Notes: generated by a model from the sequence alone, not told the origin. Numbered from the stretch's first letter, positions 24,780-38,578 are shown. The stretch: 64,000 nucleotides of DNA from an uncultured Chloroflexia bacterium (GCA_963774265.1 CAVZDU010000007.1:64001-128000), one strand, 5' to 3'. Made by a program: numbers and translations.

Positions 24780-24808
24780 GAGGGCCTTTCGAGTATACTC
24801 TGGGTGTT

Positions 24809-24883
24809 CGGGGCGTAGCGCAGCCAGGTTAGCGCGCTTGATTTGGGTTCAAGAGGTCCGGAGTTCGAATCTCCGCGCCCCGA
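24809..24883 (+). tRNA. tRNA-Pro(TGG)
   Basis: Cloverleaf with CGGGGCG/CGCCCCG acceptor, cttga-tttgggt-tcaag anticodon arm, TTCGAAT T-loop; CCA not encoded. Confidence 0.97.
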
Positions 24884-24917
24884 TGTGAGACAGGCCAGTA
24901 CACAAGTGCTGGAATGA

Positions 24918-28720: not shown

Positions 28721-28792
28721 GCGGGTGTAGCTCAGGGGTAGAGCGTCTGCCTTCCAAGCAGAATGTCACGGGTTCGAATCCCGTTACCCGCT
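28721..28792 (+). tRNA. tRNA-Gly(TCC)
   Basis: GCGGGTG/TACCCGC acceptor, tctgc-cttccaa-gcaga anticodon arm, TTCGAAT. Confidence 0.97.
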
Positions 28793-38007: not shown

Positions 38008-38175
38008 GGTGCGGGGGTGTTCTCGTCGTTCATATTCGCTCCTTACGCCGTCGTAGGTGAGGACATGAGGATAGCAGGTGCAGCCCTGAGTGTGCAAATT
38101 GAAGATTGAAGATCAATCCGGACTCCGGTATCTTGCCGAAAAACCGCTTCGTGTGATAGAGTGTTGAGGTGGTAA

Positions 38176-38543
38176 GGGCCCCTAGCTCAGCGGTTAGAGC
38201 GGCCGGCTCGTGACGGACGGTCCGTCAAGGGCTGCCCGGCGGGTGACTGCCGGGTGATTACCTGCCAAACTCGGGGAAGCCTAAGTCATTCTGGTATGGT
38301 GATCCCGAGCCAAGCCCCTTCACAGGGGAAGGTGTAGAGACTAGACGGCAGGCGCCCGACGGGGGCGGCATTAATCCGACCCCACAGGGTGAAGGGATAG
38401 TCCAGCCCACAAACTCGTTTCCGGTTGCGTCTGGGGTTTCCATCTTGTGTGGAGCTCCCCGGTCGAACGGGAGTCGCGGGGCGGCGAAAGCCGTAGTGGG
38501 AAGCATAACCGGTTGGTCCTGGGTTCGAATCCCGGGGGGCCCA
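38176..38543 (+). tRNA. intron-containing tRNA-CAT, probably tRNA-Ile2 (exons 38176-38208 and 38504-38543)
   Basis: Joined exons give a complete 73-nt cloverleaf: GGGCCCC/GGGGCCC-A acceptor, gccgg-ctCATaa-ccggt anticodon arm, TTCGAAT. Confidence 0.93.
38209..38503 (+). ncRNA. group I self-splicing intron, 295 nt, no ORF
   Basis: Follows U and ends in G; P AAACTCGGGGAA, Q ATCCCGAGCCAA, R GTAGAGACTAGACGG, S AAGGGATAGTCC; P3 cctgcc/ggcagg, P7 gacta/tagtc, P2 with GUGA tetraloop. Confidence 0.93.
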
Positions 38544-38545
38544 CT

Positions 38546-38578
38546 AAAAGCGAAGCCGCCAGCGCTTCGTTTTTATTT
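38546..38578 (+). terminator. terminator after the tRNA
   Basis: aaaagcgaagc-cgccagc-gcttcgtttttattt. Confidence 0.65.

Follow-up and report, generated by a model that had tools for sequence, protein, structure and literature searches.

How does a bacterium read AUA codons when the only gene detected for the task is interrupted in the middle of its anticodon loop? The question is raised by a locus in a 64,000-nucleotide stretch of bacterial DNA that was analysed as a whole and is referred to here as the window. Read from the sequence, a tRNA(CAU) gene occupies window positions 38176–38543 on the plus strand, and a 295-nt group I intron interrupts it after U33. The original prediction had taken this for a tRNA-Ile2 gene and supposed that its intron might be a new combination of site and host. 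Four classical types of bacterial tRNA intron are recognised, Leu.3Ug, Arg.5Ug, fMet.2Ug (after U33) and Ile2.5Ug (after U36), to which Williams 2020 (bioRxiv 10.1101/2020.01.27.920355) added 17 further types, raising the number from 4 to 21, in 5,292 genes. By that account the prediction had rightly given an Azoarcus site 3′ of the anticodon and a cyanobacterial fMet site at U33. A 2014 review (PMC4033280) gives cyanobacteria and alpha- and beta-proteobacteria as the only known hosts of such introns. Our full-text search of the literature, with the running text of Williams 2020, returned no paper in which an Ile2 intron at position 33/34 is named. We consider it very probable that the locus is the single detected tRNA-Ile2 gene of its genome and that it carries a bacterial tRNA-type (IC3-like) group I intron between U33 and C34.

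The exon and intron boundaries fall exactly where they had been placed, and the features of the locus are collected in Table 1. The 3′ exon ends at the discriminator base A73, with no CCA in the DNA. Downstream, a terminator scan flagged the hairpin at 38551–38569 but assigned it to the minus strand; the T-run on the plus strand was read from the sequence. Upstream of the gene, the promoter scan found no sigma-70-type promoter at its threshold. A weak TTGCCG-18-TAGAGT element with an upstream TG (38133–38162) falls below that threshold, and a promoter role for it is only a guess.

Standard annotation tools pass over the gene. ARAGORN in its default mode did not report it, and an Rfam scan at gathering thresholds did not list the intron. 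When the exons were joined by script, ARAGORN returned a normal cloverleaf tRNA(cat), the outcome the prediction had anticipated for the spliced sequence. With introns allowed, the program found the gene but placed the 295-nt insert 3 nt downstream, and this shift leads it to call a tRNA-Thr(cgt), i(37,295). Against the Rfam model RF00028 (Intron_gpI), the window gave a match at 38212–38420 that spans the full model (1–253) with 48.1 bits (E 4e-11), just under the gathering score of 50; hence the absence from the default Rfam list. Both misses thus show thresholds at work and not an absence of the gene.

Table 1. Features of the interrupted tRNA gene, in window coordinates. Pairing figures and row counts refer to an alignment of 15 introns described in the text.
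Feature	Position	Strand	Details
5′ exon, tRNA-Ile2(CAU)	38176–38208	+	33 nt; tRNA positions 1–33; ends GGCU, last base U33; from the sequence and ARAGORN on the joined exons
P1, 5′ strand (exon C29–U33 and intron nt 1)	38204–38209	+	pairs with 38229–38234; U33 with G38230
Group I intron	38209–38503	+	295 nt; first base C, last base omega-G; from RF00028, the alignment and orthologous introns
Internal guide sequence GGGCUG (P1, 3′ strand)	38229–38234	+	GGGCU invariant in 15/15 rows; covaries with exon nt 31 across phyla
P2 hairpin	38235–38254	+	8 bp; GUGA (GNRA) loop 38243–38246; 100% of cells paired; compensatory changes in 5/8 pairs
P3 and enclosed elements	38261–38352	+	38261–38266 with 38347–38352, around P4–P6 (38270–38332) and the P7 5′ strand (38337–38343)
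P8 hairpin	38353–38391	+	5 pairs; 100% paired; 1 compensatory
P7, 3′ strand	38398–38403	+	pseudoknot with 38337–38343; bulged A38338; 6 pairs, 100% paired
P9 domain, three-way	38406–38500	+	~95 nt; closing helix CCCAC/GUGGG; P9a; P9b with GAAA loop (38481–38494)
omega-G, final intron nucleotide	38503	+	G in 15/15 rows
3′ exon	38504–38543	+	40 nt; tRNA positions 34–73 (C34 A35 U36 ... A73); starts CAUAA
Hairpin then UUUUUAUUU, probable intrinsic terminator of the tRNA gene	38551–38578	+	starts 8 nt past the gene

Three tRNA species can carry a CAU anticodon here, and the exons were assigned to one of them by their discriminating positions. Silva et al. 2006 (PMC1635315) state that G3/A3 or C70/U70 exclude Met and fMet, with G3-C70 a complete negative discriminator, that C4-G69 and C5-G68 are frequent in Ile2, and that A11-U24 and G12-C23 are signs of an initiator. 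In the window tRNA the corresponding pairs include G1-C72, G3-C70, C4-G69 and C5-G68. Initiator marks are missing from it, the bases being C11-G24, U12-A23 and C29 G30 G31. The traits on which the prediction had set the initiator aside (G1-C72, C4-G69/C5-G68 and no G29-G31) can all be read directly in the sequence. Aligned with the annotated E. coli ileX, metT and metU, the window tRNA has C4–C6 and the variable loop UGGUC in common with ileX. The genome's only intron-free CAU genes are of a different, GGCGACG type, one at C9:102941–103014 and a 5′-truncated duplicate at C9:114241–114310. This C9 tRNA has C3-G70, and it shares with metT six of the seven acceptor pairs and the variable loop GGGUC.

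The best-surviving alternative exchanges the two roles, making the interrupted gene an elongator tRNA-Met and the tRNA(CAU) at C9:102941–103014 the real Ile2. In a BLAST search against E. coli genomes, nucleotides 8–60 of the C9 tRNA do match chromosomal tRNA-Ile (ileX) at 81.5%, in 5,492 of the 5,495 matching E. coli records. They do so because the 3′ strand of the anticodon stem, UCGCU, is common to both. The determinants of Met and Ile2 are, moreover, lineage-variable and not universal, according to Silva et al. (PMC1635315). The window-type tRNA for its part gave 21 full-length matches in the E. coli collection, all 21 under tRNA-Ile features, as were the 6 rows listed. As a test of isotype the E. 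coli BLAST proved indecisive and partly misleading, and it was replaced by the ileX/metT/metU alignment together with the published discriminators. Overall similarity does not cleanly separate the two tRNAs, so it is the acceptor stem and the variable loop that carry the Ile2 assignment. There, the G3-C70 pair, which by Silva et al. excludes Met and fMet, and the Ile2-like C4-G69 and C5-G68 of the window tRNA oppose the exchange, as do C3-G70, the metT-like acceptor and the GGGUC loop of the C9 tRNA; we regard it as improbable.

With the gene taken as Ile2, we asked whether its insert has the architecture of a working ribozyme. Fifteen introns were aligned, 13 from Ile2 genes and 2 from initiator genes, and the canonical group I structure was written onto the alignment by hand, giving 63 pairs in P1–P9 including the P7 pseudoknot. 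In this structure 98.8% of cells are paired, against 34–48% when the partners are slid by 1–3 columns, and 16 pairs show compensatory changes on both sides. None of 500 shuffles matched the observed values in four of five measures, and 4 of 500 did so for the count of further pair types. The splice-site U:G pair of P1 is present in 14 of the 15 rows and a C:G pair at the first intron nucleotide in all 15. P3 is paired in 100% of cells and P4/P5 in 98.7%, with two compensatory pairs in P6a, and an A:U pair of P7 is swapped to U:A in both fMet-type rows. Every element the prediction had named, from the P1 U.G pair through the GNRA-capped P2, P3 and P7 to the P9 hairpin and the ~95-nt P9 region, is present in this structure. 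Its statement that the intron holds no homing endonuclease also stands as judged by size, since 295 nt is too short for such a gene. RNAalifold, given the alignment alone, recovered P2–P6, P8 and P9; it also paired the guide sequence with the 3′ strand of P7, a pairing set aside for the canonical P1 and P7, in agreement with the pair counts.

The P9 domain folds with a minimum free energy of −50 kcal/mol (z −3.92), equalled by none of 200 shuffles. Within it, a P9a insertion of ~60 nt (about 38417–38477) is particular to the genus of the window and its nearest relatives; in relatives with short introns, P9a has a GAAA cap instead.

To follow the intron beyond this genome, 40 relatives, 24 of the same family and 16 of the same class in other families, were searched with the 368-nt stretch. 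Within the family, the gene is interrupted in 12 genomes and intronless in 7 (called where the exon matches overlap); in 1 more the locus runs into a contig end, and 4 gave no match. The prediction had proposed such a survey for the U33 site, and half of the same-family genomes are thus positive. Among the 16 other-family genomes, none has the intron, 10 are intronless (exon matches adjacent or overlapping), 3 showed a single exon piece only and 3 gave no match. Six of the seven relatives in the same genus carry it. Orthologous introns were mapped in 11 relatives and measure 206–355 nt; the twelfth intron-bearing relative (G018, locus L013) has the intron core and an intact 3′ exon but an unrecognisable 5′ exon, which may reflect a degenerate gene or an assembly problem. 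The window intron is vertically conserved in one Anaerolineae-type family. The Chloroflexota host that the prediction supposed is borne out by introns in public Chloroflexota genomes that are identical to those of two relatives in the genus.

Scores against RF00028 vary across these loci. Of 16 intron-bearing loci scored, four pass 50 bits (L013 75.5, L040 61.3, L015 54.3, L014 51.1), ten lie below it (35–49.4) and two have no match at E 1e-4. Among the orthologous Ile2 introns, 10 of 12 fall under the gathering score, at 35–49.4 bits. The best score of all belongs to L013 (G018:C321, 575–850), despite its unrecognisable 5′ exon.

The genome also appears to need what the gene would supply. TilS is encoded at G000:C10:366634–367239, in a 524-aa open frame that scores 196.6 bits against TIGR02432 (cut-off 93.6), and ATA occurs at ~2.7 per 1000 codons in a rough count over 1024 long open frames made without gene calls. 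ARAGORN called 49 tRNAs in the genome, but neither a further Ile2 gene nor a tRNA-Ile(UAU), and BLAST of the genome found no second copy of the window exons. The search for an intron-free tRNA-Ile2 that the prediction had called for therefore leaves the window gene as the only Ile2 detected. The assembly is only 84% complete and may lack a second Ile2 gene. Other calls of the same ARAGORN run are tRNA-Pyl(cta), tRNA-SeC(tca) and a tRNA to which no type was assigned; tRNA-Lys(UUU) was not among the calls in this 84%-complete assembly.

A second RF00028 match in the genome, partial and at 32.3 bits, marks a 277-nt group I intron at C9:102470–102746. Its host gene, G000:C9:102438–102790 (locus L002, 1366–1716), is an initiator tRNA-fMet and has all four initiator marks: C1xA72, A11-U24, G12-C23, and G29-G31 with C39-C41. 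This intron too lies after U33 and before CAUAA, and its guide sequence is the same GGGCUG as in the Ile2 intron. The gene is the only initiator gene detected in the genome, at the same 84% completeness.

Evidence at the RNA level came from the contigs of four metatranscriptomes, aligned at 90% likeness or more, which derive from relatives of the window genome (word shares of at most 0.10 in the runs). Their cover excludes 38100–38175 and, in three of the four runs, 38556 onward. RNA contigs cover the intron of relatives. One (record 24), from a relative with 14 differences, is unspliced across the 3′ splice site. Another joins 38208 to 38504 exactly; record 17, which reaches only 26 letters into the exon at the 5′ splice site, was not counted as bridging. 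An intronless relative would yield the same joined contig, which therefore does not set spliced RNA apart from such a relative; splicing in vivo, lysidine formation and charging with isoleucine remain inferences.

A second alternative is that the intron is a decayed remnant that no longer splices and the gene a pseudogene. Such decay would account for an Rfam score slightly under the cut-off and for the unrecognisable 5′ exon of L013, and it is compatible with a splicing reaction known only by inference. A remnant would not be expected to keep 98.8% pairing with 16 compensatory pairs, nor a guide sequence, P7 core and omega-G that are invariant across a family-level clade. It would also leave without its only detected Ile2 gene a genome in which TilS and AUA codons are present, and the window exons match an intronless orthologue exactly. 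Decay is accordingly very unlikely in our estimation; the window intron is real, functional-looking and well conserved.

The position of the splice junction follows from intronless genes. Six intronless orthologues, five of the same family and one of another family of the class, read ...GGCUCAUAACC..., giving GGCU/CAUAA, where the slash marks the splice site. One of them (G021, locus L017) matches the joined window exons letter for letter, in the 5′ half and the 3′ exon alike; each of the remaining five departs from them at a few sites. Since the intron and the 3′ exon both begin with C, the DNA by itself is compatible with two cuts, of which only that between U33 and C34 has U at −1 and G at omega. 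The first base of the intron is C in all 14 alignment rows with a mapped 5′ junction and its last base is G in all 15, while the two bases before that G vary. A junction elsewhere, such as the one 3 nt downstream that ARAGORN reports with introns allowed as tRNA-Thr(CGU), can be dismissed as extremely improbable, for the intron would then end in U instead of G and lack a P1 partner, the intronless orthologues have CAU as anticodon, the introns of relatives begin CGA, CAG or CAA and would give orthologous genes differing anticodons, and two tRNA-Thr(CGU) genes already exist in the genome.

Having placed the intron between U33 and C34 of an Ile2 gene, we turned to the claim that this arrangement is new. 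Public genomes, one per species, were scanned with a pattern made of the common 3′-end motif of the introns followed by CATAA; at least 120 stretches matched, and 80 loci among the matches were listed. The 80 listed loci that were parsed comprise 35 credible Ile2-type genes by the position 3/70 rule, 25 initiators, 3 initiator-like genes, 2 acidobacterial genes of open type, 2 misparsed and 13 unresolved. The script had labelled 36 loci Ile2, of which L074, with a mis-found 5′ exon, was moved to the misparsed; it and L043, which had the same fault, were dropped before counts were made. The 13 unresolved loci stop at a contig end, contain an N run or have a 5′ exon that did not parse, and two of them, L079 and L096, lead into sequence that is not tRNA-like.

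Among the matches listed, therefore, at least 35 Ile2-type genes have an intron at U33/C34, and they come from six phyla: Pseudomonadota (at least 10), Planctomycetota (at least 9), Chloroflexota (at least 6), Verrucomicrobiota and Bacillota (at least 4 each) and Armatimonadota (at least 2). Among the listed Pseudomonadota are cultured isolates: Halotalea alkalilenta DSM 17697, Paracidovorax cattleyae DSM 17101 and Pseudacidovorax intermedius NS331. One metagenome-assembled genome labelled Pseudomonadota groups with Armatimonadota. Three listed Chloroflexota introns are identical to those of the relatives G024, G007 and G006. The novelty claim thus fails, since the same site in the same host tRNA is seen in six phyla including Chloroflexota, besides the family survey above. 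The kind of intron, the site and the host-tRNA combination are all abundant in public data, and this is not a new arrangement.

The listed loci also bear on how the intron recognises its exon. All 65 usable genes have U at −1; the omega-G of this wide scan is not independent evidence, because that G belonged to the search pattern. Across the 65 parsed introns among those listed, the guide follows exon nucleotide 31: with A31 it is GGGUU in 18 of 24 cases, whereas with G31 it is GGGCU in 29 of 41 and GGGUU in only 2 of 41, counts in which related genomes are not independent. RF00028 did not match the proteobacterial Ile2 introns of Halotalea alkalilenta (L047) and Paracidovorax cattleyae (L092), whether the loci (E 1e-4) or the whole genomes (E 1e-3) were searched, so surveys based on Rfam would miss them. 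Introns of 600–660 nt occur at U33/C34 in several phyla (L025, L039, L041, L063, L064, L065 and L098 from fMet genes, besides L102 and L051); these have room for an open reading frame such as a homing endonuclease.

To relate these introns to one another, we built a tree with IQ-TREE from 79 introns and 5 cyanobacterial outgroup introns (two Leu-type, two Arg-type and L150) over 223 columns. All U33/C34 introns fall in one clade, with support of 98/93. Within it, the fMet introns (all 27) form a subclade with the 3 initiator-like introns (99/96); its only other row is a misplaced outgroup, L150. That position was disregarded: L150 is a crudely trimmed Thr-like cyanobacterial intron on a branch of length 6.5. 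The Ile2 introns of Planctomycetota, Verrucomicrobiota and Pseudomonadota make a separate clade (98/84), with an exon ending ...GGACU and a GGGUU guide, and the fMet subclade joins those of Chloroflexota, Bacillota and Armatimonadota with support of only 86/81. The window intron lies within a clade at the level of the family (100/99 and 98/90), apart from the fMet intron of its own genome, and the distance between them marks the two as old paralogues and not a recent copy.

On this topology, rooted with the outgroups, the classical fMet introns fall inside the diversity of Ile2 introns and, with the target GGCU/CAUAAC common to both, look derived from them, as far as a moderately supported node and a motif-chosen sample suggest. 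Such a move from Ile2 to fMet would link two tRNAs that have that target in common. The wider proposal, that the Ile2 introns at U33/C34 are an old, widespread lineage largely missed by standard annotation and the ancestor of the cyanobacterial tRNA-fMet introns, is a tentative one, and we rate it as some way short of likely. If it holds, the only initiator and the only AUA decoder detected in this genome would both depend on guanosine-dependent ribozyme splicing.

Among known systems, the window intron is close to the cyanobacterial tRNA-fMet intron (fMet.2Ug), for which we parsed that of Trichodesmium erythraeum (L040). The two have in common the U33/C34 site, the loop CU/CAUAA, the core and the 3′ end of P9; the guide GGGCUG is common with the Chloroflexota forms, and the clades are sisters. 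They differ in host, the window tRNA being Ile2, in P7 (A:U against U:A in fMet), and in P6a and the peripheral P1 and P9 extensions, and the fMet introns form a separate clade. The window intron is probably IC3-like, given the clade it has in common with cyanobacterial fMet introns, which are marked IC3 in the database cited by Williams 2020. With the Azoarcus tRNA-Ile(CAU) intron (Ile2.5Ug), compared by description only, it shares the host tRNA species and the character of a small ORF-less group I intron in the anticodon loop, but the Azoarcus insertion point follows U36 (position 5), 3 nt downstream. Close too are the Ile2-type introns at U33/C34 in other phyla, with the same tRNA type, site, 3′-end motif and exon-matched guide; the branch of Planctomycetota, Verrucomicrobiota and Pseudomonadota is set apart by its exon and guide given above.

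We propose that splicing would proceed by the canonical route. As the pre-tRNA folds, exon C29–U33 and the first intron base would pair with GGGCUG to form P1, with U33 opposite G at the splice site. Free guanosine would attack after U33, the terminal intron G (38503) would then enter the G-site in P7, and ligation of the exons would give the loop CUCAUAA. Only after ligation could TilS modify C34, producing a lysidine-AU anticodon that reads AUA, and could IleRS charge the tRNA.

The practical consequence concerns annotation. The gene is invisible to default tRNA finders, so genomes of the same family would appear to have no AUA decoder and, here, no initiator tRNA either. The locus would further add a well-supported case of an essential single-copy tRNA that depends on ribozyme splicing before TilS modifies the base adjacent to the splice site. 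For intron evolution it offers a testable picture of transposition between CAU tRNAs with a common loop sequence. The understanding of how group I introns function is unchanged.

Several further features were seen along the way. The outgroup intron L150, from Floridaenema evergladense (G042:C75:810–1072), is a group I intron with 71.9 bits against RF00028, lies in a gene that ARAGORN calls tRNA-Thr(UGU)-like, and is of a type outside the four classical tRNA introns. On C9 of the window genome, the elongator tRNA-Met at 102941–103014 has its near-identical, 5′-truncated copy 11.3 kb downstream, including ~30 nt of 3′ flank, and the pair resembles att repeats from an element that has integrated into a tRNA gene. 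Lastly, tRNA-Pro(UGG) at 24808–24884, tRNA-Gly(UCC) at 28721–28792 and the Ile2 gene are spread over 13 kb in the window. In five relatives (L012, L017, L019, L021 and L022) the same trio lies within ~300 nt, so DNA seems to have been inserted between the tRNA-Pro, tRNA-Gly and Ile2 genes.
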